Under the pieces are notes generated by a model, which was not told the DNA's origin, did no database searches, and was given only the letters and a program-made list of their open reading frames with translations. Made by a program: the position numbers and the translations under genes. From Elusimicrobiota bacterium (GTDB lineage: Bacteria; Elusimicrobiota; Elusimicrobia; UBA1565): a stretch of DNA of 34,266 bases. This document shows positions 1,394-28,851 of this stretch, one piece after another (the stretch's first letter is position 1; the number at the start of each line of letters is the position of its first letter). The stretch is taken from assembly GCA_043819795.1 (NCBI GenBank), contig JBDREN010000214.1:1-34266 (forward strand), in the 5' to 3' direction.

Positions 1394-3019
<1,626 letters not shown>

Positions 3020-3065: not shown

Positions 3066-3377
3066 TTACTTCAGAATGCCCAGGATGTCCTCCTGGTGCA
3101 TAATAAGGAAGTCCTCGTCGTCTATCTTGATCTCGGTCCCGGAGTACTTCCCGTAAAGGACCCTGTCCCCCGCCTTCACTTCCATGGGGAGGACCTTTCC
3201 GTCCTCGGTCGTCTTCCCTTTGCCGGCCGCGACGATCTTCCCTTCCTGGGGCTTCTCTTTCGCGGTGTCCGGGATGATGATGCCGCTCTTCTTCACTTCC
3301 TTCTGCTCGAGGGGCTGTACGAGAACCCGGTCTCCGAGGGGCTGTATCTTGACTTTGTAGAGAGTCGCTTCAGCCAT
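3066..3377 (-). CDS. groS: Co-chaperonin GroES (Cpn10)
   Basis: 103 aa; [10 protein letters not shown], mobile loop [33 protein letters not shown] at 3388-3392. Confidence 0.99.
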
Positions 3378-3422: not shown

Positions 3423-3449
3423 TTGGCACTCTGATCCGTTGATTGCTAA
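3423..3449 (-). promoter_or_regulatory. CIRCE element (HrcA operator), proximal
   Basis: Minus strand reads TTAGCAATC-N9-GAGTGCCAA versus the consensus TTAGCACTC-N9-GAGTGCTAA (2 mismatches); it abuts the -10 box upstream of groES. Confidence 0.92.
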
Positions 3450-3478
3450 TTATAGCAACATATCCCCAAAGCTGTCAA
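3449..3478 (-). promoter_or_regulatory. sigma70-type promoter of groESL
   Basis: TTGACA (3478-3473)-N18-TATAAT (3454-3449), with an extended TGn before the -10. Confidence 0.88.
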
Positions 3479-3530: not shown

Positions 3531-4898
3531 TTAGTCTTTCTTTTCTTCCGGAGTGAGCGGCCGAGGGGGGGCGGGCGGCTCGAGAGGTTCTTCCCCGCGG
3601 TCTTTCGGTTTGAAAGAGGGCGGACGCGGGGAAAGATACCGGCTCATGAGGTCCGTCAATCGATTCACGGCGGTCCGCCAGGGAGCGGGAACCGGGACGT
3701 ATTCCTCCGCCGGCCGCGACTCGCCCGTGGGTCGCGGACTTACTTCCTCCGGGGCGGACATATGGTCTTCGGCGCGGCCGGACCCGGGACCCGTGGCCTC
3801 GCCGACCACCTCGGACTCCCTCTCCTCATGGACGGGACAGGGCTCCTCGGCTTGCCCGCGTCCGGCTTCAGGCGCCGGGGCCCCTCCGTCCACGGGCCGG
3901 TCGCCGGGGGTGGCCGGCTCCGGGGCTGTCTCTCGGGCAGGGACCGCCGGCGCTTCGATAGGATCGGCCGTTCGCGGCTCGGGCGGGCCGACGTCTTCGG
4001 CGGGCGGGCACATGCCTTCGTTCGAAGCGCCGGGAAGAGCCGCGGCCTCGTGGGCGGGCTCGGCCGCGGCGGCTTCTTCGCGCGGCGGCTCGGGCTCCGG
4101 AGTCTCGATAGTCGCCGGGAGGCCGGGGACTCCTCGGGCGATGCCGGCGACGCTCGCGGGCAGCATGTCTCCGAGCAGCTCCTCCAGCCGCCGGATCACG
4201 CCGAACGACTTCGCCAGGGTGAATTCCTTGTCGGCCAGCTCTTTGGTCAGGTCGTCGCAGACCCGGGTCTGACGCTCGAGGCCCCTGGAAACGCTCGCTT
4301 CGCCGCGATGGGTCTCCTCGAGCTCCCGCCTGAGCTCAACGATCAGGCCTTCGAGTTCGTCGATCTTCCGTTCGCGCTGGGCGGCGTCGGAGCGCATCCG
4401 GGTCAGGTTATCCTGGAGCTTCTTCTCCCTGTCCTGGAAGCCGGCGATGAGGTCGGCGCGTTCCTGCAGGTATGCGTTGCGCTCGCGCATGGCGAGCAGC
4501 TCGTTGTTCAGCTCCACGATCTGCCGCTGCAAAGACTGCGTAAGGGCGCGCTCGGCCCGGCGGTTCTCGAGCTCCTTCATGAGCTCGCTCACATGCCGGA
4601 AGAGCCGGTTGCTCGAGTCCGAGAGGATGTCGTTGGGGCCCTTCGCCATGCCGGGCTCCGCGGCCCCGGGCGCCTCGGCTTCCGGCGCTTCCGGGGGCAG
4701 CGGCCGCTCCGCCGCCACGCGGCGGCGCAGGGCATCGAGGATTTCCGGGAGCTGGCCCGCGTGCCGCCAGTGGCGCTCCTCGATCCCGCCGGCGGCCGGG
4801 CAGACCATCGATGTCTCGGTGAAGCCCGGGGTCGCCGCGAGCTCGTCGGGCTCGTAGCTGCCCGGGACCTCGCCGTTGATGTAGACCCAGTATCTCAC
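3531..4898 (-). CDS. Hypothetical protein: N-terminal GYF_2/DUF4339-like domain, coiled coil, Pro/Glu/Ala-rich disordered tail
   Basis: RYWVYINGEVPGSYEPDEL...SMVC...HWRHAGQLPEI resembles GYF_2; heptad-rich region at about aa 100-235; GTG start overlaps the upstream stop (GTGA). Confidence 0.7.
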   Translation of the reverse strand: MRYWVYINGEVPGSYEPDELAATPGFTETSMVCPAAGGIEERHWRHAGQLPEILDALRRRVAAERPLPPEAPEAEAPGAAEPGMAKGPNDILSDSSNRLFRHVSELMKELENRRAERALTQSLQRQIVELNNELLAMRERNAYLQERADLIAGFQDREKKLQDNLTRMRSDAAQRERKIDELEGLIVELRRELEETHRGEASVSRGLERQTRVCDDLTKELADKEFTLAKSFGVIRRLEELLGDMLPASVAGIARGVPGLPATIETPEPEPPREEAAAAEPAHEAAALPGASNEGMCPPAEDVGPPEPRTADPIEAPAVPARETAPEPATPGDRPVDGGAPAPEAGRGQAEEPCPVHEERESEVVGEATGPGSGRAEDHMSAPEEVSPRPTGESRPAEEYVPVPAPWRTAVNRLTDLMSRYLSPRPPSFKPKDRGEEPLEPPAPPRPLTPEEKKD

Positions 4899-5920
4899 GC
4901 AGCGGCCTCGTCCCCCGGCCGCAGACGGGAGAGCGAGTCGAGCAGGCCGCGCAGCTCACCCAAGCGCTCCTCGTTGGACTCCTGCATCTCGCGAAGCTTC
5001 ATCTCCAGGTAGCGGGTCGTCTCCCTAAGGCGCTCCTCCGCTTCCCGCTGGCGTTCGGCGAGCCGGGGCTCGATCTCCTTGTTGCGGCTGGCGAGGTCGT
5101 CCATCCTGCGGAGGCTCTCCGCCATCTCGCTCTGCACCGAATCGCGGCTGCGGACGAGGCGGTCCTGAAGAGAGGCGGCCTGCCGGCGCAGCTCTCCCAG
5201 GGAGCCCTGCAGGGCCGCGTCGCGGGTCGACTCGTCGGCGAGCGTCTTCTCGAGCTCCTCGATCCTGCGGACGAGATCCTTTTTCTCCCGCTCCAGGTTT
5301 CCTTTCTGGTCGTAGGCCGACTTGATCTCCGCTTCGAAGCTCTCCAGACGCGTCGCCTGCCGGGAATACTCCCTTTGCAGGAACTGTTTGTTTTCCGTCA
5401 TCGTCCGGATCTGCTCGTTAAAGTGCCGCGCCTGGTCCTCGAGCCGTTGGATCTGCGTCTCGTAGTCGTCCTGGGCGCGGGACATCTTGACCTGAAGATC
5501 GGCGATCTGCCGCTGCACGTCGCCCTCGTGTTCGCGCAGGTCCTTGTTCTCCCGCTCGATCCGCTCGATCCGCGATTGGAGGCGGCCGCGCTCCTCCGCG
5601 AGCTTGCGCAGCTGCTCGTCGAGGGTCTTGCGTCCGACCGTTCCGGGCGCGCTCCTGAGCTTCTCCAGCTCCCCCTTGAGCAGGCGGATCTCCTTGCGCG
5701 AGAGATCTAGCTCCTTGTTGATCTGCTCGGTCTCGAACGTAGGCTCGGGCTCGGCCTCGAGCTCCGTATGCTCTTTCTTCCACCAATCCTCGAAGTCCGC
5801 GACCTCCCGGTCGATCTGGTGCGGCCGGCCGGAGGGACCGGCCTTAACGTCCCGCATGGCCTTGTCCACGTCGCGATTGAAATCGTCGAGCCAGCCCTCG
5901 TAGGGGTCGGGTGTCTCCAT
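4895..5920 (-). CDS. Long coiled-coil cytoplasmic protein
   Basis: 341 aa from ATG 5920 (the ORF track starts at TTG 5935); E/K/R/L/Q-rich heptads over about 280 aa; no signal peptide or TM segment. Confidence 0.75.
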   Translation of the reverse strand: METPDPYEGWLDDFNRDVDKAMRDVKAGPSGRPHQIDREVADFEDWWKKEHTELEAEPEPTFETEQINKELDLSRKEIRLLKGELEKLRSAPGTVGRKTLDEQLRKLAEERGRLQSRIERIERENKDLREHEGDVQRQIADLQVKMSRAQDDYETQIQRLEDQARHFNEQIRTMTENKQFLQREYSRQATRLESFEAEIKSAYDQKGNLEREKKDLVRRIEELEKTLADESTRDAALQGSLGELRRQAASLQDRLVRSRDSVQSEMAESLRRMDDLASRNKEIEPRLAERQREAEERLRETTRYLEMKLREMQESNEERLGELRGLLDSLSRLRPGDEAAA

Positions 5921-5974
5921 AGGCCGATGGTCCAAGGGTAGGATAAGCAGATTGCTAAATTATTGCTGCAGAAA

Positions 5975-7036
5975 TCACCAACCGCGTTCCTCGATGAACC
6001 TCGATAAGCTGCGGTCATCGGGATTCAGCTCCAGGGCTTTGCGCAAGGACGTCCGAGCGCGGCGTTCGTTCCCGAGCGCGTATTGGGCGGAGCCCAGCTT
6101 GGTCCAGGCCCGGCTGTCGTCCGGAGCCAGAAGCAGGGCGCGGCGGCAGGCCTGGATGGCGGCCCCGAAGCGGCGGTCGAAAAACGCCTGGGAGGCCTGC
6201 CGCAGCTCGTGGTGCACGAGCGCGTGCAGCGGGAGGACGCCGTCCGGGTCCGCCTTGATCCCGGTCCGCTTCTCCAGGACCCGCAGCAGGGTCCGGCGCG
6301 CTCCGTTGCCCGGGTCCGCGCCCAGGGCCGCCTGGGCGTAGAGCACCGCCTTCATATTCTCTCCGGCGGCGAAGGACTCGATCGCGAGCCCGGCGTGCAG
6401 GGGCCCGTCGCCTCCCTCGTCGCTGTAGAGCTCGGGCGACGGGGCGTCGAGCTTGCCCAGCTCCGCCAGCAGACCGCTGCGGCGCGTGTTCACCTTCCTC
6501 AACGGCGCGTTTTCTTCGCGGTCCCGCTCCGCCTTCTTGAGGAGGGGAGCGGTTTTCGCCGCGGCCGGTTCGTTCGCGGGAGGGGCCGGCATCCCCCCCT
6601 CCGCGCCGGGCTCGCGCGTACGGGGCCGGGCGTCGGGCTCCAGGTCCGGGCGGTTTCCCATGGGCCGCGTCCGGACGTCGTCCCCGGCGTCGTTATCTGG
6701 GTCGGCCTTGGCTGCCTCGCCGTCGGCGGGCGGAGAGAGCTGCGCGGCGCCGGCGCCATCCAACGAGGTGAGGAACCAATCGGCCCAAGGAGCCATTCCC
6801 GGGCCGGGGCTTTCCGGAAAGACCACCGAGGGGCTCGCGGCGGCGCCGGACGCGGTACTGGGCCGCTGCCGTGGCTCGGTGCGCGTTTCGTCCCCGCTGC
6901 GCGGGGACGTCCCTTCTCGTGAGGATTCAGGGAGGGGTACGACTTCGCGTAAAGGCGCGGCCGTCAGGCAGCCGGAGAGAAGCGCGCAGGCCGTGGGCAG
7001 CAGGGCGGCCTTCGGGAAGCGGCGCGGGGCCCTCAA
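5975..7036 (-). CDS. Putative lipoprotein with C-terminal TPR repeats
   Basis: Basic N-terminus, hydrophobic stretch and lipobox LSG-C; Pro/Ala-rich linker; TPRs (AWTKLGSAQYALG...ALELNPDD); TTG start overlaps the upstream stop. Confidence 0.75.
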   Translation of the reverse strand: MRAPRRFPKAALLPTACALLSGCLTAAPLREVVPLPESSREGTSPRSGDETRTEPRQRPSTASGAAASPSVVFPESPGPGMAPWADWFLTSLDGAGAAQLSPPADGEAAKADPDNDAGDDVRTRPMGNRPDLEPDARPRTREPGAEGGMPAPPANEPAAAKTAPLLKKAERDREENAPLRKVNTRRSGLLAELGKLDAPSPELYSDEGGDGPLHAGLAIESFAAGENMKAVLYAQAALGADPGNGARRTLLRVLEKRTGIKADPDGVLPLHALVHHELRQASQAFFDRRFGAAIQACRRALLLAPDDSRAWTKLGSAQYALGNERRARTSLRKALELNPDDRSLSRFIEERGW

Positions 7037-8481
7037 GAAACCGCGCCCTCCGGGGGATGGACCGCGGGGGGGCCCATGGGATCGATGCGCTTCCAGCGGA
7101 CGAGGATCCGCGCGCGCGCGCGGTCCGCCTGCTCCAGCGAGTCCGGGACCAGATACTCCGCCTTCTCTCTCACCATGTTCCGAAGCACGGCCGGCAGAGC
7201 GCTCAGAATGGGGTTTCGGGCGTCGTCGGGGACATCGTAGAGGCTCAGAGCGATCTCATCGCAGGAGAACGGGCTCAGACAGCGCCGAAGCACGGCCGGA
7301 TCGGCGCCCGACAGGTCCGCCATCGTCGGAAGCTCTTTCTCGAGGGACCGGACCTGCCCCGGCGCTGAGGCCGCGAGATAATGGAGGACCTGCCCGCGCG
7401 TGCGCTCGGGGCAGCGCAGGAGGATCTCCGCCAGGAGCCCTTCCCCTTGCGCCACCGCGGCGAGGTGTCGGCTCAGCATCCTTCGGGCCGCCGGCGGGGG
7501 CGGCTGGCCGGCGGGCGTTTCGGGCGGGCTGAGCAGCAGGGCCTTGGCGATCGCGAGGCCGGCGGCGTCCGGCAGGCGGCGGAACACGGCCGCCGCCGTT
7601 TCGTGGTCCACGGACCGGAGGACCGCGACGGCCGTCCCCACGGTCTGTTCGCTCAGGAACTCGACGATGGATTCCGCGTGGCGGGGGGCGATGAATCCGA
7701 GGCTCTCGGGACGCGCGCGGGCGAGCGACCTGTGCGGCACCTGCGGGTCGGGCGCCCGGCGAGTCGCGCGCCGGCGCGTCAGCGGGAGGATCGCGAGCGC
7801 CAGGACGAGCAGCAGGGCGGCCGCGGCGGCGTACACCGAGGCGGTCAGGACCGCCTCCCGGATATCCGGTTTACGGAGAGCCTTTCTCCAGGTGCTCCCG
7901 ACCGGCGCCCGCGCCACTTGAAGCAGGTCCCCCCGGGCGGGGTCCAACCCGAGTGCCTCGGCGACCGCCGAGCTCGCGGGCTCGAGCTCTTCGCGCCCCA
8001 CGCTCGGATCGACCAGGAGGGTGACGGTCAAGACCTCACCCGCCGGGAATACCAGGGACGGCGCGGCCGCAGCCATGAGAGAGCGGACAGCCTCTTCTTG
8101 GAGGCTGCGGGGCGCGGGATATCCAGGAAGCACCGGCGGGGCGTTCTCGATGCGTTCGGCGATTTCGTCCCAGAGGGCGGCGGGCCGCGTCGCCGGCTCC
8201 GCGGCGATCTCCGGAGCCCGGCTTCGGGCGCGGACGAATGCCCGCGCCTTCCCCACACCCAGGATGTCGGCGAGCAGCACGTCGAGACGCGCCTCGAGGG
8301 AGCGCTCATGAGCTCCCAGGTCCGGGCGCGCGCGGGCCACGGTGCGCGCTTCATCCCCGCTCAGCGGGGACGCGCCCGCCTGTGAATATCCGGGGAGAGG
8401 CGCGGCTGAGCCGACAGGCTCGGCCGCCCAGAACGCGAGGAAGATCGCGGCAAGGATCGGCAAGGGCGCGTTGGTTTTCAC
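7033..8481 (-). CDS. Apparent FliF(ring-building motif)-TM-FliG(middle + C-terminal) fusion protein
   Basis: Signal/anchor; LEARLDVLLADILGVGKARAFVRA and VLTVTLLVD...AEALGLDPARGDLLQV match the two halves of the FliF C-terminal ring motif; TM helix; then FliG_M-like (IVEFLSEQ..TAVAVL..VD.ETAAAVFRRLP) and FliG_C-like (DL..ADPAVLRRCL....DEIALSL...P.SLEQADRARARI) segments. Confidence 0.72.
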   Translation of the reverse strand: MKTNAPLPILAAIFLAFWAAEPVGSAAPLPGYSQAGASPLSGDEARTVARARPDLGAHERSLEARLDVLLADILGVGKARAFVRARSRAPEIAAEPATRPAALWDEIAERIENAPPVLPGYPAPRSLQEEAVRSLMAAAAPSLVFPAGEVLTVTLLVDPSVGREELEPASSAVAEALGLDPARGDLLQVARAPVGSTWRKALRKPDIREAVLTASVYAAAAALLLVLALAILPLTRRRATRRAPDPQVPHRSLARARPESLGFIAPRHAESIVEFLSEQTVGTAVAVLRSVDHETAAAVFRRLPDAAGLAIAKALLLSPPETPAGQPPPPAARRMLSRHLAAVAQGEGLLAEILLRCPERTRGQVLHYLAASAPGQVRSLEKELPTMADLSGADPAVLRRCLSPFSCDEIALSLYDVPDDARNPILSALPAVLRNMVREKAEYLVPDSLEQADRARARILVRWKRIDPMGPPAVHPPEGAVS

Positions 8482-8533: not shown

Positions 8534-8562
8534 AGTATAGACCCGGGAACGCCGATTTTCAA
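8534..8562 (-). promoter_or_regulatory. sigma70-type promoter of the FliF-FliG-like operon
   Basis: TTGAAA (8562-8557)-N17-TATACT (8539-8534), about 52 nt upstream of the GTG at 8481. Confidence 0.65.
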
Positions 8563-9308: not shown

Positions 9309-9454
9309 GCGACCGGTCAAGAATATGGGACTTCCGACCTCGATCGCCGTGGGCCAATGGACGCTTGTCCGGCTGGTGCTTCCGGTTATCCTACGGATAG
9401 GACTTTAGGGCAATGAATCTAAACCCCTTCCCCCATTCCCGGTCAGGAGCCCCG

Positions 9455-11962
9455 ATGAGCCTGTGGATCGCCGGGTTCGTAGCTCTCCATCTCTCGGCGG
9501 CGGCCGTTTCCGCTTCGACGGACCAGGCTCCGACGTCCCCCCTGCTGGACCGGTATCCCCCCGCGGAGGCTGAGTCCATCGTGCGGACGGGCGGGCTGCT
9601 CGGGTTGAGCTTTTCACCCGAGGGCGGCCTTCTGCACGCGAGCAAGGACCGCCTTTCGGGCGAGGTCGAGCGGCGGGCGCTCGAGACCAAAGCCGCCGAG
9701 CGCGTGGTCGTCTTCCTTTCGCGCCTTCCCAAGGAGGATCCCGAGATGGGCATGGCCGTCGCGTTGCGGAGCTACCTGCGGCCGCGGATGGCTCCCCGGG
9801 ACCTCGAAGACAATATGTTCCTCAATAGGGACGAGGAAGGCCGGCTGGTCCTGACCGAGATCGGCAGGAACGCCCTCGTAGACATCTTGACGGCCGCCGA
9901 CGGCCAGATGCTCGAGCCCCCTTCCGAGGAGAACGGGCTCGACGGCGGCGCGTCGGAGGATGCGGAGGCCGAGCGTCCCTTGCCCCCCGGAACGCTAGCG
10001 GCCGTCGGCTCGCGGGCGGTCGCCCGCAATGAGATCGCCCTCGAGAACCCCCGCGCGGCCTTCGACGGAGCCCGGCACGAGCTCGGCGGCTTCGATTGGT
10101 CGGCGCTCGGCGCCGCTGTTTGGGCGCCCGGCGGGGGCGTCGTCGCCCGGGACGGCAGGTTCCCCCGGCCGGTCGCTCCGAGCGGCTCGAAGGGGCTCGC
10201 GGCTCCGGCCGAGCTCGCGGGCTACGCGGTGGACGAGGATGCCGGGACCGTCCGAGTGCTCATCGCCACGGACCGCGAGGTGAGCGAGGATCATTTCAAG
10301 GTGAAAGACCCGGACGCGGTCAAGAGCGAGATTTACGAGCAGGCGGGCCTGAGCGAGGGCCTGCTGGAGCGACACGGCGCCCGGGTGGTCCGCGCGGTCG
10401 ACAACATCGTGACCGTCGACGTGCCCCTGCCGTCGGCGGCGGCTCTCGGCCTGGCGCTCGAGAGGCGGGGCGTCGAGAGCCGGCCGGCCCGCGTATTCAA
10501 GGCCGCTAGAGGCGCTTTCGCCTCTCCGGTCACGGCCATGCTCGGCGGACAGTTCCTTCCTCTGCCGACGGCCGACACTGTGCGCGACGCCGCCTACGAC
10601 GCGCGCCTGGGCGGCCTCGAGGTCCGGCCCCAGCTGGTGGAGAGCCGCGTCCGGCTGGAGGCCGAGAGGCTCCGGGCGGCCGGCATGCGCGGCGCGGGGA
10701 CCATGGTCGGCATCATCGATTCGGGCATCGATCTGCAGCATCCGGACTTCAAGGACGAGCAGGGGCGCAGCCGCATCGCCGCAGCGATGGATTTCACGAA
10801 CGAGGGAGACGACGACGTCATCGGCCACGGCACCCACGTCGGCGGCACGATCGGCGGCAGCGGCGCGGCCTCCGACGGCCAGTACCGCGGCTTCGCCGAC
10901 CAGGCGCGGTTCAAGGTGGCGAAGGTGTTCGGCGAGAAGGGCGAGACCGATGAGAGCGTCATCCTGGCGGCCATGAAGTGGATGGCGTCCGGCGACAAGC
11001 CCGAGGATAAGGTGGACGTCATCAACATGAGCCTCGGCGGCCCGGGCGTGCCGAACAAGGACCCGCTGAGCTCGATGGCCAACCGCCTCACGGTCGAGGA
11101 CAACATCCTCGTGGTGGCCGCCGCCGGCAACGACGGGCCGTGGCCCCGGTCGGTGAGCTCTCCCGGAAACGCCCGATACGCCCTGACGGTCGGCGGCGTG
11201 AACAAGGACGGCGATATCCCGTTCTTCTCCTCGCGCGGCCCGATCGCGGGCACCGAAGGCAATGAGCTCTACTCCAAGCCCGACGTTCTGGCCGTCTCGG
11301 GCGACGTCGATTTCGCGTTGTACGAGGAGCTGGTCATCAAGGAGGCGGGGATCGTTTTTTCCGACAAGGAGGGGCAGGGCGGCGTCGCTCCGGAAAGCGG
11401 GCAGGCCGGGCCGGACGGCGAGAAGTGCATCTACGCTCCCGGCGTCATCGCTCCCCGCAGCAGCAAGGACCCCGACAAGGTCTGTATTCTGAAGGGCAAT
11501 CCGGCCTACCGGTACATGTCGGGGACTTCGATGGCCACGCCGATGGTCGCCGGCATGTCCTCGGACGTCATCGGCTACCTCAAGGCCAACGGCGCGGACT
11601 ACGACGCATTCCAGGTCAAGGCGCTCCTCATGGAGACGGCGCAGGACATAGGGAAGGTCAAGGAGGAGCAGGGCGCGGGGCTCGTCAGCGGCGGGCGCCT
11701 CGTCCAGGCCGTCGTCGACCGGGTGCGGCGCGGGATTCCCGTCGGAAACATCGCGTTCGCCCTGGCGATGCGCATGACGTCCAAGGACCTGGAGCAGATC
11801 CAGCACCAGACGCGCTACCAGATGACCGAGCTCGGCCTGCTCGACACCCACACCGGGCACCTAGTCAACAAGGAAGAGGATATCCAAGCGGCGATCGACG
11901 CCATCCGGAGGGCGCGGCCTCCCCTGGTCGTCCGCCGAGAGACCCCCCTAGAGGCGGTCTAG
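9455..11962 (+). CDS. Secreted S8 (subtilisin-like) serine peptidase with long N-terminal region
   Basis: Triad IIDSG / HGTHVGG / GTSMATP and oxyanion AAGN; AGGAG RBS before ATG 9455; signal peptide MSLWIAGFVALHLSAAAVSA. Confidence 0.92.
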   Translation: MSLWIAGFVALHLSAAAVSASTDQAPTSPLLDRYPPAEAESIVRTGGLLGLSFSPEGGLLHASKDRLSGEVERRALETKAAERVVVFLSRLPKEDPEMGMAVALRSYLRPRMAPRDLEDNMFLNRDEEGRLVLTEIGRNALVDILTAADGQMLEPPSEENGLDGGASEDAEAERPLPPGTLAAVGSRAVARNEIALENPRAAFDGARHELGGFDWSALGAAVWAPGGGVVARDGRFPRPVAPSGSKGLAAPAELAGYAVDEDAGTVRVLIATDREVSEDHFKVKDPDAVKSEIYEQAGLSEGLLERHGARVVRAVDNIVTVDVPLPSAAALGLALERRGVESRPARVFKAARGAFASPVTAMLGGQFLPLPTADTVRDAAYDARLGGLEVRPQLVESRVRLEAERLRAAGMRGAGTMVGIIDSGIDLQHPDFKDEQGRSRIAAAMDFTNEGDDDVIGHGTHVGGTIGGSGAASDGQYRGFADQARFKVAKVFGEKGETDESVILAAMKWMASGDKPEDKVDVINMSLGGPGVPNKDPLSSMANRLTVEDNILVVAAAGNDGPWPRSVSSPGNARYALTVGGVNKDGDIPFFSSRGPIAGTEGNELYSKPDVLAVSGDVDFALYEELVIKEAGIVFSDKEGQGGVAPESGQAGPDGEKCIYAPGVIAPRSSKDPDKVCILKGNPAYRYMSGTSMATPMVAGMSSDVIGYLKANGADYDAFQVKALLMETAQDIGKVKEEQGAGLVSGGRLVQAVVDRVRRGIPVGNIAFALAMRMTSKDLEQIQHQTRYQMTELGLLDTHTGHLVNKEEDIQAAIDAIRRARPPLVVRRETPLEAV

Positions 11963-14249: not shown

Positions 14250-15509
14250 TCATTTGATGAATATGAGGCTCAGCTGCGGGACGTAGGTCACCAGCAGCAG
14301 CATGGCGATGTGGATGAGCCAGAATACGAAGGTCGAGCGGTAGAGCTTGAGCAGCGGCTGATCGAACCGGCGGTTCGATAAAAAGAGGTTGAGGCCCAGC
14401 GGCGGCGTCATGTAGCCGATCTCGAGGTTCAGAAGGAATATGATCCCCAGATGGACGGGGTCGATGCCGTACTGGGCGGCGATCGGGATGATGATCGGGA
14501 CGACGATGATGATCGCCGAGAAGATCTCGACCATGTTGATGATGAGGAGCATGATGTTAAGGACGATGAGGAACACGGTCTTCGATTCGACGAACTGGTG
14601 GAGCGCGACGAATATCCGCTCGGGGATCTCGGCGTCGATCATGTAGTTCGTCAGTCCGAGAGCCGTCCCGAGCACGATGAGGATCGCTCCCACGAGCATC
14701 ATGCTCTGCGAGACCACTCGCGGGAGGTCGGACGGCCGCACGTCCCGGTAGATCATCACCTCGACGACGAGCGCGTAGAAGGCCATCACGGCGGCGGCGT
14801 CGGTGGCCGTGAAGAGCCCCCCGTATATGCCCCCGATGACGACGAAGGGGAGGGGTATCTCCCAGGCCGCGGCCCGCGCCGCCGAGAGCACGGCCTCCCA
14901 GGAGAACGGGATGCGCTCGAGGCCCGAGCGCCAGCCGACGACCATGCTGTAGGCCGAGAGGATCGCGACGAGGAGCAGCCCGGGGAGGGCCCCGGCGATA
15001 AAGAGCTTGTCGATTGAGACCTTCGCGACGAGCCCGTAGAGGATGATCGGCAAAGACGGCGGGAACAGGAGCCCCAGGCTGCCGGTGCAGGTTATCAGGC
15101 CGAGCGAGAAGCGTTCGGAGTACTTCTGCTGGCGCAGCATCGGATACAGGAGCCCTCCGAGGGCGATGATCGTCACCCCCGAGGCTCCGGTGAAGGCCGT
15201 GAATATGGCGCAGCTCATCAGGCCCACCACGGCCAGCCCCCCGGGCATCCAGCCGAAGAGGGACTGGGCCAGGGCGAGCAGGCGTTGGGGCGCCTTCGAC
15301 TCGGCGAGGATGAACCCCGCGAAGGTGAACAGCGGGATCGCGATGATGGCCGGAAGGCTCGCGAGCCGGAACAGCTCGATGATGACGGCCGAGAGGTCTA
15401 TCCCGGCGAGGTGGAACAGAAACAGCCCGAGCGCGCCCAGCAGCGCGAAGACCGGCGTCCCGAGGGCCGCCAGCGCGACGACCAGGACAGTGACGAGAAG
15501 CGCGGTCAT
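14250..15509 (-). CDS. dctM: TRAP transporter large permease
   Basis: Highly hydrophobic; AIPLFTFAG, GSLGLLFPPS, GIDPVHLG, TPPLGLNLF. Confidence 0.95.
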   Translation of the reverse strand: MTALLVTVLVVALAALGTPVFALLGALGLFLFHLAGIDLSAVIIELFRLASLPAIIAIPLFTFAGFILAESKAPQRLLALAQSLFGWMPGGLAVVGLMSCAIFTAFTGASGVTIIALGGLLYPMLRQQKYSERFSLGLITCTGSLGLLFPPSLPIILYGLVAKVSIDKLFIAGALPGLLLVAILSAYSMVVGWRSGLERIPFSWEAVLSAARAAAWEIPLPFVVIGGIYGGLFTATDAAAVMAFYALVVEVMIYRDVRPSDLPRVVSQSMMLVGAILIVLGTALGLTNYMIDAEIPERIFVALHQFVESKTVFLIVLNIMLLIINMVEIFSAIIIVVPIIIPIAAQYGIDPVHLGIIFLLNLEIGYMTPPLGLNLFLSNRRFDQPLLKLYRSTFVFWLIHIAMLLLVTYVPQLSLIFIK

Positions 15510-16033
15510 GAGTGATCGTCCGCGGGGCTCCCCCCGTCGGGACCTCTCAGCTCGAGGGCGGCGCAGGCGGCCTTGACGGCGTAGTGGACGAGCAGCAGCA
15601 GGAAGCCGGCCGGCAGGATGACCTCGAAGACCCAGCTGGGGACGTGGAGCCCGCCCACCGAGAACAGGACGGCCCCGGCCCCGAACTCGTCGCGCAAGAA
15701 GGTCCAGGAGGCCGAAGCCAGGAAGCCGCAGACGAGCGCCGTGAAGGCGTGACAGAGCAGTTGGACGCCGGAGCGGAGCCGGCCGCTCAATAGGCGCGTC
15801 GCGGCGTCCATGGCGAACTGCTTGTCCCCGCTGGCCGCGAGCGCGGCGCCGAGGAAGCCGACCCAGAGCACGAGATGGCGCAGGAAGGTGTCGGCCCAGA
15901 GCAGGCCCGATGAGAACAGCCCGCGCAGGACGACCTGCAGGAAGCTGAGGACCACCATGACCACGATGAAGGCGATCAGCAGCGCCTTCTCGGCGCCCAT
16001 CAGCCAGCGTTCGAGGGTCTTGAGGGTCCTCAC
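15506..16033 (-). CDS. dctQ: TRAP transporter small permease
   Basis: Four TM segments; LQVVLR, LWVGFLGA; likely GTG start at 16033, 7 nt after the dctP stop. Confidence 0.88.
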   Translation of the reverse strand: MRTLKTLERWLMGAEKALLIAFIVVMVVLSFLQVVLRGLFSSGLLWADTFLRHLVLWVGFLGAALAASGDKQFAMDAATRLLSGRLRSGVQLLCHAFTALVCGFLASASWTFLRDEFGAGAVLFSVGGLHVPSWVFEVILPAGFLLLLVHYAVKAACAALELRGPDGGSPADDHS

Positions 16034-16040
16034 CGCGGAG

Positions 16041-17090
16041 CTACTGCTTCTTGCTGGAGTCGGAGCGCTTCCGGCGGAAGGACTCCAGCGACTTCTCAAC
16101 GCGGTCGAGGAGCTCCTCGGAGTAGAGCCGGCCGACGAGCAAGCGTCGGGCCTTGCGCCCGGCGTCTTCGTAGGCGAGCGCCTGCTTCTCGGAGGCCGGC
16201 CGCGTGAGCTTCAGGCCCTCCTTCTCGAGGGTCTTCATCGCCTTCCGGTTCTCCTCGCGGGTCAGCTGGCTGAGCCGGCGCAGGTGGCGGCGGGAGACCT
16301 CGACGAGGACCTCCTGATGCTCCTCGGAGAGCCGGTCGTATCTGCTCTTGGAGATCAGGGCGGCGCCCGCGGCGTTCGCGAAGGGCACGGAGTACACGTA
16401 CTTGGTCTTCTCATGCCACTGGAGGGCGATCGCGTAGAGCGGGGCCGAGTAGACGGCGTCGATGAGGCCCGTCTGCAGCGAGGTGTTGACGTCGGTGATG
16501 GAGAGCGGGATCGGGTGGAGGCCCAGGACCTGGCACGCCGCCTCGGCGATGGGGTCGCCTTCCCATATCCAGAGCTTGAGGCCCTTCATGTCCTCCGCCG
16601 ATGTGACCGGGGAGTTCGAGAAGACGTGCACGAATCCCACCTCGCTCCAGCCGAGCAGGACGTAGCCCTTCTCCTCGAAGGCCTTCTCGAAGTCGCCGGC
16701 GAACTTCTCGTAGATATGGTCGACCTCCTCGTGGCTCCGGAACAGCCACGGCGCGTCGAGGATGCGCACCTCGGGCGCGATCTCCCCGAGGCCGACGCCG
16801 GTGAATCCGCCCGCGTGCAGCTGGCCGACGCGGATCTTGCGCACCATGTCCTTCTCGTCGCCCTGGCGGCCCCCGGTGTAGAACTTGAACCGGACCTCGC
16901 CTCCGGTCTTCTCCCGGACCTCTTCGTCGATGGCCCGCATGACCTTCATGGCTTCGGTCCCGTCGGGAGCCAGCGTGGCGAACTTGATGCGCGCGGCCTG
17001 GGCCGGCGCGCAGAGAAGCGAGACGGCCGCGACCAGGGCCGGGACCGGCAGGCGGCTCCGGCAAGGAGAATGCTCTCTAGAATAGGTCAT
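16041..17090 (-). CDS. dctP: TRAP substrate-binding protein (TatP_T type)
   Basis: Signal peptide ending in AQA; KFATLAPDGT, GGRQGDE, LQTGLIDA; W in place of the usual Arg in GLK.R. Confidence 0.93.
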   Translation of the reverse strand: MTYSREHSPCRSRLPVPALVAAVSLLCAPAQAARIKFATLAPDGTEAMKVMRAIDEEVREKTGGEVRFKFYTGGRQGDEKDMVRKIRVGQLHAGGFTGVGLGEIAPEVRILDAPWLFRSHEEVDHIYEKFAGDFEKAFEEKGYVLLGWSEVGFVHVFSNSPVTSAEDMKGLKLWIWEGDPIAEAACQVLGLHPIPLSITDVNTSLQTGLIDAVYSAPLYAIALQWHEKTKYVYSVPFANAAGAALISKSRYDRLSEEHQEVLVEVSRRHLRRLSQLTREENRKAMKTLEKEGLKLTRPASEKQALAYEDAGRKARRLLVGRLYSEELLDRVEKSLESFRRKRSDSSKKQ

Positions 17091-17955
17091 CGATCTGCTC
17101 CATGAGATTCTTGGATTTAATCTTGGCCACCTCGTCGGCGAGGCGGGCGGCCGGCAGGCCCCCCGCGGGAGCCTCCTGGATCTCGTCGTAGAGGTTGCGG
17201 AAGAGCGCGTCGTCGAGCACGGCCACCGCGTAGTACTTCATGGCGAGCAGCTGGGCCGTAAGGAAGCGACGTCCGGTCCGGGCGAGGGCCGCGTCGAGGT
17301 GGGCTTTCGCCTTGTCGGGGTCGCCGCCCGCCAGGCGCGGGCGCGCCGCGTAGTAGACGCCGAAGAAAAGGTCCGGTCCGCCGAACTGGTAGCCGGGCTC
17401 CAACTCCAGGACCCGCCGCATGAGCCGCACCGCCTTCGGCACGGCGGCGAGGGCCTCCGCGTCGTTCTTCGCCATGTTGGCCCAGCCGGCCCAGGCCGTG
17501 GCGGTCCAGTAGAGGCCGGGAACGTCCTTGCGGCCCGCCGAACGCAGGGCCCGCGACATGTCGTCGGGCTGCATGCGGTCCAGCCCCGCGAGCCGTTTGT
17601 TGCGCGCGAGGAGCCTGAGGCCGTAGCCGGCCGCGCGCTTGTAGAACTCCCGGGCGCGGTCGGGGTATTCGTCCTCCAGAAAGAGGAACGCGTACCCGGC
17701 GAAACCTTCGGCCAGGGCCTTCAGCAGCCTCCGGTTGCGGGGGCCGTTCTGCAGCAGGGCTTCGAGGAGCTTGAGCTGGCCGGGCATGGTCTCGCGGGCG
17801 AGAACCGGGTCCGGCTCCTCATAGAAAGCCGTGGCCCCGCGGTCGAGAAGATGGGCCGTCGTCCGCAAGGCCGTCGTCCGCAGGCTGCACCCGCCGACGG
17901 CCGCCGCAAGCAGGAGGACGGGAAGAAGCCGCCGGAACCCGACGTAGGCGTTCAT
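17077..17955 (-). CDS. tatT: TRAP-associated TatT component (TPAT lipoprotein, cryptic TPR)
   Basis: 292 aa from ATG 17955; lipobox VGG-C; EPDPVLARE..P..LKLLE, GYAFLF, GG.D.AKAH; located directly upstream of dctP. Confidence 0.85.
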   Translation of the reverse strand: MNAYVGFRRLLPVLLLAAAVGGCSLRTTALRTTAHLLDRGATAFYEEPDPVLARETMPGQLKLLEALLQNGPRNRRLLKALAEGFAGYAFLFLEDEYPDRAREFYKRAAGYGLRLLARNKRLAGLDRMQPDDMSRALRSAGRKDVPGLYWTATAWAGWANMAKNDAEALAAVPKAVRLMRRVLELEPGYQFGGPDLFFGVYYAARPRLAGGDPDKAKAHLDAALARTGRRFLTAQLLAMKYYAVAVLDDALFRNLYDEIQEAPAGGLPAARLADEVAKIKSKNLMEQIDDLF

Positions 17956-17963
17956 ATTAGGGG

Positions 17964-17972
17964 ATTCTAGCA
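17964..17972 (-). promoter_or_regulatory. Extended -10 element (TGCTAGAAT) for the TPAT operon
   Basis: Lies 8 nt upstream of ATG 17955 with no Shine-Dalgarno. Confidence 0.5.
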
Positions 17973-17991
17973 AACCCGAATCCTGTTTCGC

Positions 17992-18075
17992 AGGCCTCCC
18001 CCGCGGGGAGGCCTTGCGCTTTGTCGAGGGGGCCAAGAGCTCCCTCTCCCTGCGGGAGAGGGTTGGGGTGTGGGG
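17992..18075. repeat. REP/BoxC-like palindromic intergenic element
   Basis: Hairpins AGGCCTCCCC/GGGGAGGCCT (17992-18014) and CCCTCTCCC-N3-GGGAGAGGG (18042-18062) followed by TTGGGGTG; resembles a widespread short palindromic repeat; only one copy in this window. Confidence 0.55.
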
Positions 18076-18157
18076 GCGGACTTCCTCTATAACCCAGAGG
18101 ATCAAGCGCCGGTCGGCCGCTTCGCGCGACCGGCGCTGACAGACCTGCGCTTACATC

Positions 18158-24329: not shown

Positions 24330-25195
24330 CCCTTCCTTAGGTTCGAAAGGACGGTGGCGGTCGCCTGCGACTTGTTGAGGGTGTAGAAGTGGATGCCGGG
24401 CGCCCCCCCCTCCAGGAGTTCCCGGCATTGGCGCGTGGCGTACTCGACGCCGTAGCGCGCGACGGCGTCCTTGTCGTCGGAGATCGGCGTGAGCGCGTCG
24501 ATCATCTTCCGGGGCAGACTCGCCCCGCACATCGTCGTGAACTTCCGGATCTGCTTGAAGCTCGTCACGGGCATGATCCCGGGCACGATCGGACACCGTA
24601 TGCCGATCTCCCGGGCGCGTTCCACGAAGTCGAAGTAATCCGCGTTGTCGAAGAACAGCTGCGTGATGATCCAGTCGCCGCCGGCGTCCACCTTGTCCTT
24701 GAGGCGGGCAAGATCCTCCTCCTTGGACGGGGCCTCGGGGTGTCGCTCGGGGTAGCCGGCGACGGCGACGGCGAAGGCGCCGGCGTCCGAGCGGATGATA
24801 CGCACGAGGTCCCGCGCGTACGGCACCTCCCGCTTCTCCGGCGGGAGCGGCTGAGTGTCGCGCGGCGGATCCCCGCGCAGCGCCACGATGTTCTCGATCC
24901 CGTAGGAGCGGATCCTGGCCAGGATCGAGCGGAGCTCGGCCCGCGTGTGGGCTATGCAGGTGAGGTGGGCCGCGGTCTCGATACCGAGCTCGTTCTTGAT
25001 CGTCCCGGCGGTCTCGATGGTCCGTTCGGGGGCGGTGCCGCCCGCTCCGTAGGTGATCGTGACGAAAGAGGGGCCGAGCTCCTTGAGCTCGCGGACGGTC
25101 CGCTTGAAGCGCGGGGTATCGCCCGGCTCTTTCGGGAGAAAGAACTCAAAAGAGAACACCGGCTTCCCCCGCCCGAAGAGCTCCGGTATCCTCAT
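24326..25195 (-). CDS. metF: 5,10-methylenetetrahydrofolate reductase
   Basis: FSFEFF.PK, ITYGAGG, AHLTC, ALRGDPP, AGYPE.HPEA, ITQLFFD, GIHFYTLN. Confidence 0.97.
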   Translation of the reverse strand: MRIPELFGRGKPVFSFEFFLPKEPGDTPRFKRTVRELKELGPSFVTITYGAGGTAPERTIETAGTIKNELGIETAAHLTCIAHTRAELRSILARIRSYGIENIVALRGDPPRDTQPLPPEKREVPYARDLVRIIRSDAGAFAVAVAGYPERHPEAPSKEEDLARLKDKVDAGGDWIITQLFFDNADYFDFVERAREIGIRCPIVPGIMPVTSFKQIRKFTTMCGASLPRKMIDALTPISDDKDAVARYGVEYATRQCRELLEGGAPGIHFYTLNKSQATATVLSNLRKG

Positions 25196-28149: not shown

Positions 28150-28180
28150 ACAGTGCGCCGGGGGTCGCCGGCGCGCTAGA

Positions 28181-28209
28181 AGCATAAGGTATGCATGTTA
28201 AATATTCAA
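28181..28209 (-). promoter_or_regulatory. sigma70-type promoter for the TPR-metF-omp85-asmA operon
   Basis: TTGAAT (28209-28204)-N17-TATGCT (28186-28181) in an AT-rich patch. Confidence 0.55.
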
Positions 28210-28638: not shown

Positions 28639-28851
28639 ATGCGTCGCTATTTCCGATTGCCGGTTCTCGTGCTAGAGCCCGGAGCCGGCCGAGGCTACAT
28701 CCGCGCGTCGGCGCGCGTGCCGGGACTCGCCCCCGAGGTGGACGCTTTCCTGGAGCAAGCCCTGGATCCCGACCCCGCGCGCCGCGTCCGGAGCGCCGGC
28801 GGGTTCTCCGCCGGGATGGACCGGCTGCCCGGGCCGGCGGACACCGGATGA
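28639..28851 (+). pseudogene. 70-aa ORF consisting of a Ser/Thr kinase C-terminal tail remnant
   Basis: RGYIRASARVPGLAPEVDAFLEQALDPDPARRVRSAGGFSAGMDRL aligns without gaps to the end of the next gene (RGYIKPSAHVPELPEGVDALIDDSLDPNPETRIPSVREFSARLDRL); GGAGG RBS at 28629-28633. Confidence 0.75.

Follow-up and report, generated by a model that had tools for sequence, protein, structure and literature searches.

The window, a 34,266-nucleotide stretch of an Elusimicrobiota genome, carries on its minus strand a gene that joins parts of the flagellar rotor proteins FliF and FliG in one polypeptide, together with genes for a predicted lipoprotein and two coiled-coil proteins:

3531..4898, minus strand: 455-aa protein with a small N-terminal domain, a coiled coil and a disordered Pro/Glu-rich tail
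4895..5935, minus strand: 346-aa cytoplasmic coiled-coil protein (no TM, no signal peptide, no hydrophobic segment)
5975..7036, minus strand: 353-aa predicted lipoprotein, downstream gene (LSGC lipobox by eye; Pfam TPR_1, 5e-10)
7033..8481, minus strand: FliF(RBM3-like)-TM-FliG(M+C) fusion gene, 482 aa, clade ‘E’ (ORF, Pfam FliG_C, family profile, model and Foldseek)
7084..7374, minus strand: FliG C-terminal (torque-helix) domain, aa 370-466, with V, E-K and S in place of the canonical charges (Pfam FliG_C, Foldseek)
7447..7695, minus strand: FliG middle-domain-like segment, aa 263-345, with QTVG at the EHPQ position (phmmer alignment to 1lkv; family profile)
7765..7869, minus strand: TM helix, aa 205-239, equivalent to FliF TM2 (Kyte-Doolittle, model helix, profile alignment)
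7894..8325, minus strand: RBM3-like periplasmic FliF domain, aa 53-196, containing ALGLDPARGDLLQV (model, profile A4, Foldseek)
8401..8481, minus strand: signal peptide or membrane anchor at the N terminus (aa 1-27), either cleaved or not (hydrophobic aa 5-27; model helix 7-19)
8534..8562, minus strand: TTGAAA-17-TATACT, resembling a promoter and lying 50-80 nt upstream of the GTG (consensus pattern match only)

The 482-aa open reading frame, which starts with GTG and has a coding signature (GC3 of 0.85 versus GC2 of 0.55), is a natural FliF-FliG fusion. The first-pass annotation, made from the sequence alone, had described one chain with a signal peptide or anchor and one TM helix, in which a FliF part is followed by the FliG middle and C-terminal domains, whereas the N-terminal FliF ring parts (RBM1/2) and FliG_N appear absent. 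This description was borne out: Pfam, the family profile and Foldseek support the fusion, the N-terminal hydrophobic segment has an equivalent in all paralogs, the single strong TM segment spans aa 209-237 (Kyte-Doolittle peak of 2.59) within the model helix at 205-239, and neither FliG_N nor YscJ_FliF (PF01514, RBM1/2) has a Pfam match in the protein at E ≤ 1. The region N-terminal of FliG_M consists, in the model, of a disordered linker and the TM helix.

For the cytoplasmic part, Pfam FliG_C (PF01706) matches aa 370-466 above its cut-off (4.7e-9, 36.9 bits versus 23.3), and a FliG_C profile search of the genome returned the fusion at 39.1 bits; FliG_M (16.4 bits versus 25) and the FliG equivalog TIGR00207 (15.9 bits versus 226.7) do not reach theirs. 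A single-sequence alignment to FliG_MC of T. maritima (1lkv) is unbroken over aa 263-471, the family profile A3 matches the same structure at 2.2e-49, and the family profile also recovers the FliG_M chains 3soh/4qrm at 2e-13. All 13 Foldseek matches of the AlphaFold model at E ≤ 1e-3 are FliG or FliG-length C-ring chains, and the FliG_C region (pLDDT 86-95) superposes on 1qc7_B (TM 0.78, rmsd 2.0) and 8ucs_H (TM 0.78, rmsd 1.7). The first-pass annotation had allowed for the contrary outcome of an MgtE_N-like match alone. Pfam MgtE_N does come slightly under its cut-off over aa 268-315 (2.7e-5, 25.1 bits versus 25.9), and a cytoplasmic part that is an MgtE_N-type Mg2+-sensing domain instead of FliG was considered; however, with FliG_C above its cut-off, a continuous FliG_MC alignment, 0 MgtE chains at E ≤ 0.01 in the family-profile search that reached FliG at 2.2e-49, and FliG or FliG-length chains at every one of the 13 Foldseek matches, we regard this reading as ruled out for practical purposes. 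The weak match is explained by the fold that MgtE_N and FliG have in common.

The identity of the periplasmic part and its TM helix as FliF RBM3/collar and TM2 is supported by the family profile, this sequence alone being below the cut-off of YscJ_FliF_C (PF08345, 18.2 bits versus 23.8, aa 151-193). Profile A3 matches residues 240-549 of Salmonella FliF (6scn) at 1.6e-13, in an alignment that extends through residue 549 and covers TM2, and it spans both halves of the engineered Vibrio FliF-FliG fusion 8z4d (945 aa) at 9.7e-40. The periplasm-only profile A4 recovers FliF chains at 1.5e-9 to 4e-8 (7.5e-9 among them) and SpoIIIAG at 1e-3, and Foldseek matches the domain to FliF S-ring/RBM3 chains (probability 0.9-0.99, TM 0.40-0.49, E 0.1-0.5). 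The predicted topology is alpha-beta-(helical insert with an invariant LPG motif)-beta-alpha-beta (H55-74, E79-87, H99-113, H125-139, E149-157, H163-177 and E186-191 in the model). P119 and G120 of the LPG motif are invariant in the A4 alignment, in which the family stretch ‘LgldpergDelsivRapl’ lies on FliF VGYSENRGDLLNV (9yh6) and VGFDQGRGDLLNV (Vibrio); the FliF C-terminal ring motif that had been noted by eye is thus present as the RGD stretch of the family.

The fusion resides in a genome without a recognizable flagellum. YscJ_FliF, FHIPEP, FliM, FliMN_C, Flagellin_N, Flg_bb_rod and FliP, all searched with positive controls in four flagellated genomes, have 0 matches in this 90.3%-complete genome, and FHIPEP has none in the four related genomes. 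Canonical fliF and fliG are likewise missing from the genome, all five of its FliG_C loci being fusions. The complete flagellar system in which this gene might have been the working rotor gene was accordingly not seen, and the earlier proposal that the protein is uncoupled from FliM agrees with the 0 matches to FliM/FliN.

The gene is not the orphan that it had been taken for. It is one of five paralogous FliF-FliG fusions in the genome, and 143 of the best 150 matches in a public protein library span both halves in one stretch, so that at least 143 clusters have the same architecture. As an estimate of family size, the 946 library matches at E ≤ 1e-30 were rejected because canonical FliG can score as well (T. 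maritima FliG_MC reaches 172 bits against the family profile). Four other genomes of the same taxonomic family contain five to six FliG_C loci each. The fusion aligns end to end with its four paralogs, to which it is 19-21% identical, and with five orthologs, and shows the family plan of signal/anchor, RBM3-like domain (LPG, RGD), TM helix, FliG_M and FliG_C in one chain. In a single FastTree run rooted with canonical FliG, which covers only half of the alignment, it falls inside the fusion family, with clade E nested above MotAB-linked clades. Three paralogs, of types A, B and C, adjoin genes for MotA, for MotB (plug, OmpA) and for giant surface proteins (loci C218, C56 and C237 each comprise a giant protein, TPR protein(s), the fusion gene, MotA and MotB/OmpA), whereas the copy under study does not. 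Six MotA_ExbB loci were found in the genome; three are short and ExbB/TolQ-sized, and the other three are those beside fusion paralogs. The literature searched yielded no description of a FliF(RBM3)-TM-FliG(MC) fusion family.

Full-length clade E orthologs occur in all four other genomes of the window's taxonomic family. Outside it, the 301 genomes of the phylum that were searched gave no match better than 2e-28, and a pattern search of genome contigs with the single fusion protein gave 103 pattern matches and no confirmed relative. Clear orthologs are thus seen in their own taxonomic family only, always in the same gene neighbourhood. MotA and MotB have 0 tblastn matches in the 34-kb window and in four ortholog loci of 16-20 kb; MotAB accordingly lie within ~10 kb of the clade E fusion in none of five genomes. 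For the other types in other genomes, MotAB are nearby at 1/1 A, 1/1 B and 3/5 D loci, those of type D being 4-5 kb off on the other strand where present and absent in the remaining two.

The downstream lipoprotein gene shares 4 nt with the fusion gene, and its predicted product combines a long Pro/Ala/Glu-rich linker with C-terminal TPR repeats. Its ortholog lies 3' of the fusion gene in locus L029 and is visible in L020; no TPR gene was found beside the fusion ortholog in genome G182. Among 15 clade E and sister proteins scanned for extra domains, only P0005 (832 aa) has one, a TPR domain that places the fusion and the TPR protein in one chain. Gene calling may, however, have merged two overlapping genes into P0005. 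The 346-aa protein, syntenic in three of the four related genomes, has weak Pfam/NCBIfam matches of coiled-coil type only. The 455-aa gene overlaps the 346-aa gene by 4 nt and is syntenic in all four; its product matches no Pfam family and otherwise has weak coiled-coil matches only. Its nearest Atlas neighbour is an Elusimicrobiota hypothetical cluster (0.96); GYF_2 clusters at 0.80-0.87, together with inspection by eye, offer a lead to a GYF_2-like N-terminal domain. No Pfam match was obtained for the upstream 203-aa ORF, and Rfam, run over the entire window with its gathering thresholds, returned 0 matches and thus no riboswitch, of the c-di-GMP class or any other. The promoter consensus scan gave two sites versus 0.3 expected in shuffles. 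Three sequencing runs were listed as sharing query words, the shares being 0.25 for DNA, 0.06 for a groundwater metatranscriptome and 0.05 for a marine run, all below one half; at 90% likeness, 0 reads aligned in runs X2 and X1, a result that is silent on expression and habitat.

The EHPQR motif of FliG_M and the MFxF motif serve in FliM binding and switching. Both are lost in the fusion, as the first-pass annotation had stated, and its placement of MFxF on LPTM holds: HMMER, with MAFFT concurring, puts MFVF of T. maritima FliG_MC (1lkv) there. Its register for EHPQ (EQTV) does not, both programs aligning EHPQ to Q-T-V-G. R297 of FliG is a torque-helix charge that contacts MotA; for R281 and D288/D289 of E. 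coli FliG, contacts with MotA are described in PMC12505986 and PMC7564593. By alignment to 1lkv with HMMER and by MAFFT, the fusion has V, E/K and S at the equivalents of R281, D288/D289 and R297, which upholds the earlier reading of R281, D289 and R297 as V, K and S under positions that we take to be equivalent, the transfer of E. coli numbers to the aligned FliG sequences of T. maritima and Elusimicrobiota being our own mapping.

What had been called eroded motifs is, however, a family-wide change. Gly stands at the R281-equivalent in 102 of 164 fusions, among them MotAB-adjacent ones, and in 70 of the 77 members of the clade with the MotAB-linked types A and C. Consequently, the step from lost charges to lost MotA coupling fails: MotAB-adjacent paralogs miss the same canonical charges, and their loss is no proof of uncoupling. 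Clade E departs from this family pattern in its own way, with a hydrophobic residue in place of Gly at the 281-equivalent and a basic one at the 289-equivalent in 12 of 21 members, against E in 61 of 77 members of clade A+C; 15 of 21 members keep an acidic residue, E or D, at the 288-equivalent, which is E in this copy. With 0.58, FliG_C is more conserved within clade E than within any of the other three clades. This value may merely mirror the narrower taxonomic spread of clade E. Judged from the alignments, the torque helix of clade E is remodelled yet conserved, carrying a clade-specific signature and not the marks of decay.

In sum, paralogs A-D have the same end-to-end domain plan, the LPG and RGD motifs and the loss of canonical FliG charges in common with clade E, but differ from it in several respects: the clade E locus lacks MotAB, a giant surface protein and a histidine kinase, its partners are the TPR lipoprotein and two coiled-coil proteins, its torque helix has a hydrophobic residue at the 281-equivalent and a basic one at the 289-equivalent, and its clear orthologs are confined to one taxonomic family. 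The earlier suggestion of a partner other than MotA is probably right, given that MotAB are near 0/5 loci and that the three MotA-like genes each adjoin another paralog.

We tentatively interpret this copy as a stator-independent trans-envelope scaffold that derives from a non-flagellar rotor and is not itself driven, a reading to which we give a probability of roughly 0.45. The RBM3-like domain would oligomerize in the periplasm as RBM3 of FliF does and would there meet the TPR lipoprotein, whose gene overlaps the fusion gene at its downstream end. Beneath the membrane, a FliG_MC layer would be borne by the single TM helix; in place of MotA, the remodelled yet conserved torque-helix face of this layer may bind the operon's two coiled-coil proteins in the cytoplasm. 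Clade E would therefore descend from a rotor protein and now serve as a static platform for anchoring or positioning, perhaps in the service of the MotAB machines of its paralogs. The lack of MotAB at all five loci, the conserved synteny, the 4-nt overlaps, P0005, the clade-specific torque helix and the tree speak for the scaffold. Against it stand the acidic 288-equivalent kept in 15 of 21 members and the superposition of FliG_C on MotAB-bound FliG (8ucs_H), on account of which stator contact is conceivable. FliF self-assembles as a ~33/34-mer ring. An oligomer model of four copies of aa 53-196 (alignment A3) scored 0.25, 0.33 and 0.19 versus a mark of 0.42 and argues neither for nor against a ring. 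It is doubtful that clade E forms a stator-free self-assembling RBM3/FliG_MC ring; such a ring would link the outer TPR lipoprotein with a cytoskeleton of coiled coils in the cytoplasm and, in these flagellum-less Elusimicrobiota, would position or gate the MotAB-driven adhesin machines of the paralogs.

The same evidence could also describe a working rotor turned by MotAB encoded elsewhere, namely by the three sets that adjoin paralogs A, B and C, with its output passed on through the TPR lipoprotein. The whole family is without canonical R281 and R297, yet most of its types adjoin MotAB, so that a non-canonical interface must serve, and this copy has both an intact, confidently modelled FliG_C fold like that of MotAB-bound FliG and the acidic 288-equivalent typical of its clade. 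The D-type loci show that linkage can be loose, and since motAB of flagellated bacteria are often unlinked to fliG, missing adjacency is no proof of missing stators. However, every MotA-like gene of the genome already adjoins a paralog, none of the five clade E loci has MotAB nearby, the 281- and 289-equivalents depart from those of clade A+C, and coiled-coil operon partners were noted at no other locus; we thus consider a driven rotor unlikely. Somewhat less probable still is a minor or regulatory subunit that co-assembles with the other four paralogs in their rings and, as adaptor, brake or positioner, brings the coiled-coil proteins to them. The common RBM3-like, TM and FliG_MC plan of five paralogs that align end to end, the five-to-six-copy repertoire kept in 4/4 related genomes and the invariant LPG and RGD motifs of the periplasmic domains would suit such mixing, but an identity to the paralogs of just 19-21% and an operon and TPR partner of its own would not. 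That the gene is a decaying, functionless duplicate is hard to credit: although its FliG_C score is the second lowest among the five paralogs (39.1 bits) and neither E nor P is left of the E-x-P to which EHPQ is reduced in most of its clade (E is kept in 15 of 21 members), its 482-codon frame is intact with a GC3 of 0.85, orthologs with conserved synteny exist in 4/4 related genomes, FliG_C is conserved within the clade (0.58) and the cytoplasmic domains of the model fold confidently.

The periplasmic part of the fusion is homologous to canonical FliF from RBM3/collar through TM2 (FliF 240-549, 1.6e-13; RGD motif) and the cytoplasmic part to the M and C domains of canonical FliG. Whereas FliG_N of flagellar rotors binds FliF's C-terminal tail, the fusion is one polypeptide that lacks RBM1/RBM2, this tail and FliG_N; its collar insert is predicted, with moderate confidence, to be helical and not beta, its FliG part lacks EHPQ, MFxF and charges of the R281/D289/R297 type, and its genome lacks the export gate, rod, FliM/N and flagellin. 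With SpoIIIAG and other RBM-type ring builders it has the alpha-beta-beta-alpha-beta motif with an insert in common, but the match to SpoIIIAG is weak (1e-3), there is no sporulation context and the fusion carries FliG domains.

Engineered Salmonella and Vibrio FliF-FliG fusions are described as assembling rings (PMC6079021, PMC11481574, PMC10941966; PDB 8z4d/8z4g). They too join FliF covalently to FliG, but are laboratory-made from the full-length proteins in flagellated hosts, whereas the Elusimicrobiota fusion is natural and trimmed to RBM3-TM-FliG_MC. A natural FliF-FliG fusion has been described from Chlamydiaceae, bacteria not regarded as flagellated (Bergeron 2016, PeerJ, PMC4768692). 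By that paper's description, the chlamydial protein resembles the present one in its signal/anchor, short periplasmic RBM region, TM segment and cytosolic FliG-like part, but has ~330 aa, an RBM2-like region without a SpoIIIAG-like RBM3, a FliG_M-like region only, a co-occurring FlhA and a proposed link to the injectisome; the Elusimicrobiota fusion has an RBM3-like domain, FliG_M and FliG_C, 482 aa and no FlhA (FHIPEP) in its genome. The literature searched contained no natural fusion from green sulfur bacteria; as far as searched, those of Chlamydiaceae, in which different domains were kept, are the only ones in print.

In these Elusimicrobiota, which have no flagellum, the S-ring-building part of FliF is joined straight to FliG's torque-bearing half, and a genome has five such copies that have diverged. 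This is a natural experiment on the FliF-FliG core without export gate, rod and switch. Most copies appear to be wired to MotAB and giant surface proteins, which would constitute an undescribed proton-driven envelope machine, whereas in the copy under study the stator genes are gone and coiled-coil partners have been added. Given that the whole fusion family lacks the canonical charges, their loss should not be equated with the lack of a stator. With 482 aa, the fusion is a compact candidate for ring-assembly work, and comparison of clade E with its MotAB-linked sisters could reveal the residues that turn a FliG ring into a rotor. Should clade E form a static ring, a rotary rotor would have been domesticated into the smallest natural MS/C-ring, and the case would show directly that non-rotary functions can evolve from the FliF-FliG core.

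The gene at 7033..8481 on the minus strand is an intact ORF of 482 aa with a GTG start, and its codon signature (GC3 of 0.85 versus GC2 of 0.55, in a genome of 68% G+C) marks it as a real gene. Pfam recognized FliG_C at aa 370–466 of the product (36.9 bits, cut-off 23.3), with YscJ_FliF_C (aa 151–193, 18.2 versus 23.8 bits), FliG_M (16.4 versus 25 bits) and MgtE_N (aa 268–315, 25.1 versus 25.9 bits) falling under their cut-offs; FliG_N and YscJ_FliF (RBM1/2) were not found in the protein. A hydrophobicity scan revealed an N-terminal signal/anchor and one strong transmembrane (TM) segment at aa 209–237. In a phmmer search against PDB sequences, aa 263–471 aligned without interruption to Thermotoga maritima FliG_MC (1lkv, 4.8e-5), placing EHPQ on Q-T-V-G and MFVF on L-P-T-M; the torque helix carries V, E-K and S at positions that we equate with R281, D288/D289 and R297 of Escherichia coli. 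The features described in the first-pass annotation are thus present, correct in nearly every detail, including the reading of MFxF as LPTM; the loss of EHPQ stands as well, but its register, read as EQTV, was one residue off.

More sensitive comparisons relied on an alignment of 18 sequences (the fusion protein, five database relatives, four orthologs from related genomes, and paralogs). Searched against PDB sequences, its profile matched FliG_MC (1lkv, 2.2e-49), full-length FliG (3hjl, 3.8e-32), FliF of Salmonella (6scn, 1.6e-13; profile positions 31–291 on FliF residues 240–549) and of Vibrio (1.4e-9), as well as an engineered 945-aa Vibrio FliF–FliG fusion (8z4d, 9.7e-40). A second profile, of the periplasmic part alone (14 sequences), matched FliF chains (1.5e-9 to 4e-8) and SpoIIIAG (1e-3). 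The earlier comparison with the C-terminal ring motif of FliF proved correct, because this profile aligns the family motif 'LGLDxxRGDxLxV' onto FliF 'VG(Y/F)xxxRGDLLNV'. The AlphaFold2 model built with the 18-sequence alignment (mean pLDDT 74.5; 86–95 across most of aa 350–466) comprises a periplasmic domain of alpha-beta-(two-helix insert)-beta-alpha-beta topology, a long TM helix (205–239), a disordered linker and an all-helical cytoplasmic part. All 13 Foldseek matches in the PDB at E ≤ 1e-3 were FliG or FliG-length chains of C-ring entries, and the FliG_C domain, taken by itself, could be superposed on both 1qc7_B and the FliG chain of a MotAB–FliG complex, 8ucs_H (TM 0.78, rmsd 1.7–2.0); FliF S-ring/RBM3 chains were retrieved with a probability of 0.9–0.99 and TM of 0.40–0.49 at weak E values (0.1–0.5). 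Given these profile, model and Foldseek matches, the protein is FliF from RBM3 to TM2 fused to the middle and C-terminal domains of FliG. It is devoid of RBM1, RBM2, the FliF tail and FliG_N, the last two being the parts that join FliF to FliG in a flagellum.

The assembly (4.99 Mb, 241 contigs, 90.3% complete) encodes a GroEL that shares 80–84% identity with homologs from MAGs annotated as Elusimicrobia or Elusimicrobiota. Searches of this 90.3%-complete genome for YscJ_FliF, FHIPEP, FliM, FliMN_C, Flagellin_N, Flg_bb_rod and FliP, with four flagellated genomes as positive controls for the seven families, yielded no match. The gene had been called an orphan, which is wrong: the genome contains five FliG_C loci, YscJ_FliF_C is also matched in four of the five frames, and all five translations follow one plan, namely, signal/anchor, RBM3-like domain, TM, linker, FliG_M and FliG_C. 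No canonical fliF or fliG was found elsewhere in the genome, with YscJ_FliF unmatched and every FliG_C locus a fusion. The gene under study is referred to as type E, and the four paralogs reside in the following contexts.

Type A, contig C218: giant 2928-aa surface-type protein, TPR protein, fusion with C-terminal TPR, 777-aa unknown, MotA, MotB (plug and OmpA)
Type B, contig C56: giant 2811-aa protein, TPR protein, histidine kinase and fusion in one frame, 390-aa unknown, MotA, MotB, OmpR-type DNA-binding protein
Type C, contig C237: giant protein (at least 1394 aa, reaching the contig end), SLT, flavin reductase, fusion, MotA, MotB, TPR protein
Type D, contig C220: fusion flanked by two histidine-kinase-type genes

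Six MotA_ExbB loci are present in the genome, three of them short and ExbB/TolQ-sized, the other three being those beside types A, B and C. The giant proteins of the latter cassettes (C218, locus L012; C56, L014/L015; C237, L016) carry fn3, Laminin_G_3, PKD and a FlgD_ig-like C-terminus. The type B kinase, with HisKA and HATPase_c in Pfam, runs into the fusion without a stop (together 828 aa; C56:15135-17621, minus strand; L014:10136-12622), an arrangement that recurs in genome G291 (L027:409-2922, 837 aa). At C237:9181-9849 and 9852-10526 (L016), tblastn revealed two tandem MotB-like frames after MotA, only the second of which was listed by the gene caller.

The family extends far beyond this genome. 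A profile of the fusion, its orthologs and paralogs produced 13,293 matches at E ≤ 1e-3 among 1.84 billion representative proteins, and 143 of the best 150 (E ≤ 3.4e-59, 322–847 aa) cover both profile halves in one stretch, so that the family comprises at least 143 clusters at 50% identity; the 946 matches at 1e-30 were not taken as its size, since canonical FliG sequences can reach such scores too. Within the phylum sample, 74 of 301 genomes and 52 of 98 genera have a match. Flagella are probably present in some bacteria of the same class, judging by a canonical FliG in genome G064 (334 aa, with EHPQ, MFSF and 'SERAA..KED..GPQK') that lies behind a 525-aa FliF-sized ORF (L033:3913-6498 for the pair). 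Our literature search yielded no published description of a non-flagellar FliF–FliG fusion family, and a natural fusion in green sulfur bacteria, mentioned in the first-pass annotation, could not be traced there. The one published natural FliF–FliG fusion found is that of Chlamydiaceae, described as a protein of ~330 aa with an RBM2-like domain and FliG_M only, without RBM3 (Bergeron, 2016; PMC4768692). Within this family of natural fusions, which we did not find in print, the present gene is a novel and divergent member.

Motif columns were compared across 164 fusion proteins aligned with three canonical FliG sequences (that of L033 and two more). The R281 equivalent is G in 102 fusions and R in 5, the K264 equivalent mostly G, E or D, and 133 fusions have P, S or T at the R297 equivalent. 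Only E-x-P remains of EHPQ (E in 127, P in 115).

Residues at torque-helix columns by clade (E. coli FliG numbering of equivalents)
Clade A+C (MotAB-linked here), n = 77: 281, G in 70; 288, E/Q in 77; 289, E in 61
Clade B, n = 24: 281, K/R in 12; 288, Q in 17; 289, T in 10
Clade D, n = 39: 281, G in 28; 288, E/D in 33; 289, A/S in 25
Clade E (including the present fusion), n = 21: 281, V/L/I/T in 16; 288, E/D in 15; 289, R/K in 12

Thus, on the aligned sequences, the 'eroded' motifs are a trait of the whole family. Uncoupling from MotA had been deduced from the lost charges; this deduction fails, because paralogs encoded beside MotAB lack the canonical charges too.

Full-length orthologs of the fusion are found in all four other genomes of its taxonomic family (E 1e-61 to 1e-112), each of which has five to six FliG_C loci and none of which has FHIPEP; outside that family, no match in the 301-genome sample was better than 2e-28. 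The conserved gene order is S8 peptidase, (203-aa ORF), fusion, (TPR lipoprotein), 346-aa coiled-coil protein, 455-aa protein, groES, groEL. The corresponding and other features of the window are as follows.

1394-3016: groEL
3066-3377: groES
3449-3478 (-): perfect sigma-70 consensus upstream of groES (TTGACA-18-TATAAT plus extended TG, 12/12)
3531-4898 (-): 455-aa protein
4895..5935 (-): 346-aa coiled-coil protein
5975..7036 (-): TPR lipoprotein
7033..8481 (-): FliF–FliG fusion
8534-8562: promoter-like site by pattern match, 50–80 nt upstream of the fusion gene
9413-11962 (+): 849-aa subtilase (Peptidase_S8, 8e-46)
14250-18105 (-): TRAP transporter with TAtT component
20406-22592 (-): AsmA/YhdP-like 728-aa protein
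25192-28185 (-): 997-aa TPR protein
28848-30992 (+): Ser/Thr kinase with N-terminal TPR

The fusion, TPR, coiled-coil and 455-aa genes likely form one operon, with 4-nt overlaps between the first two and the last two; groESL, having its own consensus promoter, is a separate unit. One relative has a protein of 832 aa that combines the fusion with the TPR protein, either because the two genes are genuinely joined or because the gene caller merged them. The divergent subtilase, syntenic in all four related genomes, is possibly linked to the operon. By eye, the N-terminus of the 455-aa protein resembles GYF_2; neither this nor any other Pfam family was found in it, its GYF_2 neighbours in the Atlas score 0.80–0.87, and GYF_2 clusters occupy seven of ten structural rows with TM below 0.5.

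Homologs of MotA/MotB are missing from all five clade E loci (the whole 34-kb window and four ortholog loci); they were found no more than 10 kb from the fusion in 1/1 type A, 1/1 type B and 3/5 type D loci of other genomes. In the latter three (L116, L118 and L120, from genomes G296, G234 and G190, respectively), the MotA–MotB pair is 4–5 kb away on the opposite strand; the type D fusion of the present genome has no stator neighbour. In a single FastTree run (463 columns, rooted on canonical FliG as a half-length outgroup), clade E (21 sequences, support 0.83) adjoins clade D, and both nest above B and A+C. Since clade E nests above MotAB-linked clades, its stator-less state looks derived.

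Starting from the established architecture, paralogy, missing flagellum, gene contexts and conservation pattern, we infer by analogy with FliF that the RBM3-like domain most probably assembles into a ring in the periplasm, beneath which the fused FliG_MC would form a cytoplasmic layer with no need for FliG_N. In types A–C, neighbouring MotAB units would drive rotation of the predicted ring. Our tentative preference for clade E is a static trans-envelope scaffold (probability roughly 0.45), because its loci have lost the stator genes, the helix on the stator side is remodelled yet conserved, and the operon encodes both a lipoprotein, which bears TPR repeats and a long linker and would lie outside, and two coiled-coil proteins, which would lie inside. 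A rotor borrowing stators in trans, for which the genome offers the MotAB pairs of types A–C and the clade E loci none of their own, is a possible but distinctly less probable reading, and an adaptor subunit of rings mixed with the other paralogs, which share its plan, is more doubtful still.

Decay of a duplicate gene is very improbable: clade E has a FliG_C signature of its own, 'ALP..vremVre.lr.lVP.S', and the highest within-clade conservation (0.58, versus 0.55 in D, 0.46 in A+C and 0.45 in B), a figure that its narrower spread may inflate. Judged by these columns, its FliG_C is not decaying. Least probable of all is that the cytoplasmic part is not FliG but a sensor domain of the MgtE_N type, the near-threshold MgtE_N score being set against matches to FliG_MC in sequence and to FliG chains in structure. 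As a putative scaffold or otherwise, the fusion is a compact, stator-less member of its family and a useful contrast to its MotAB-linked sisters.
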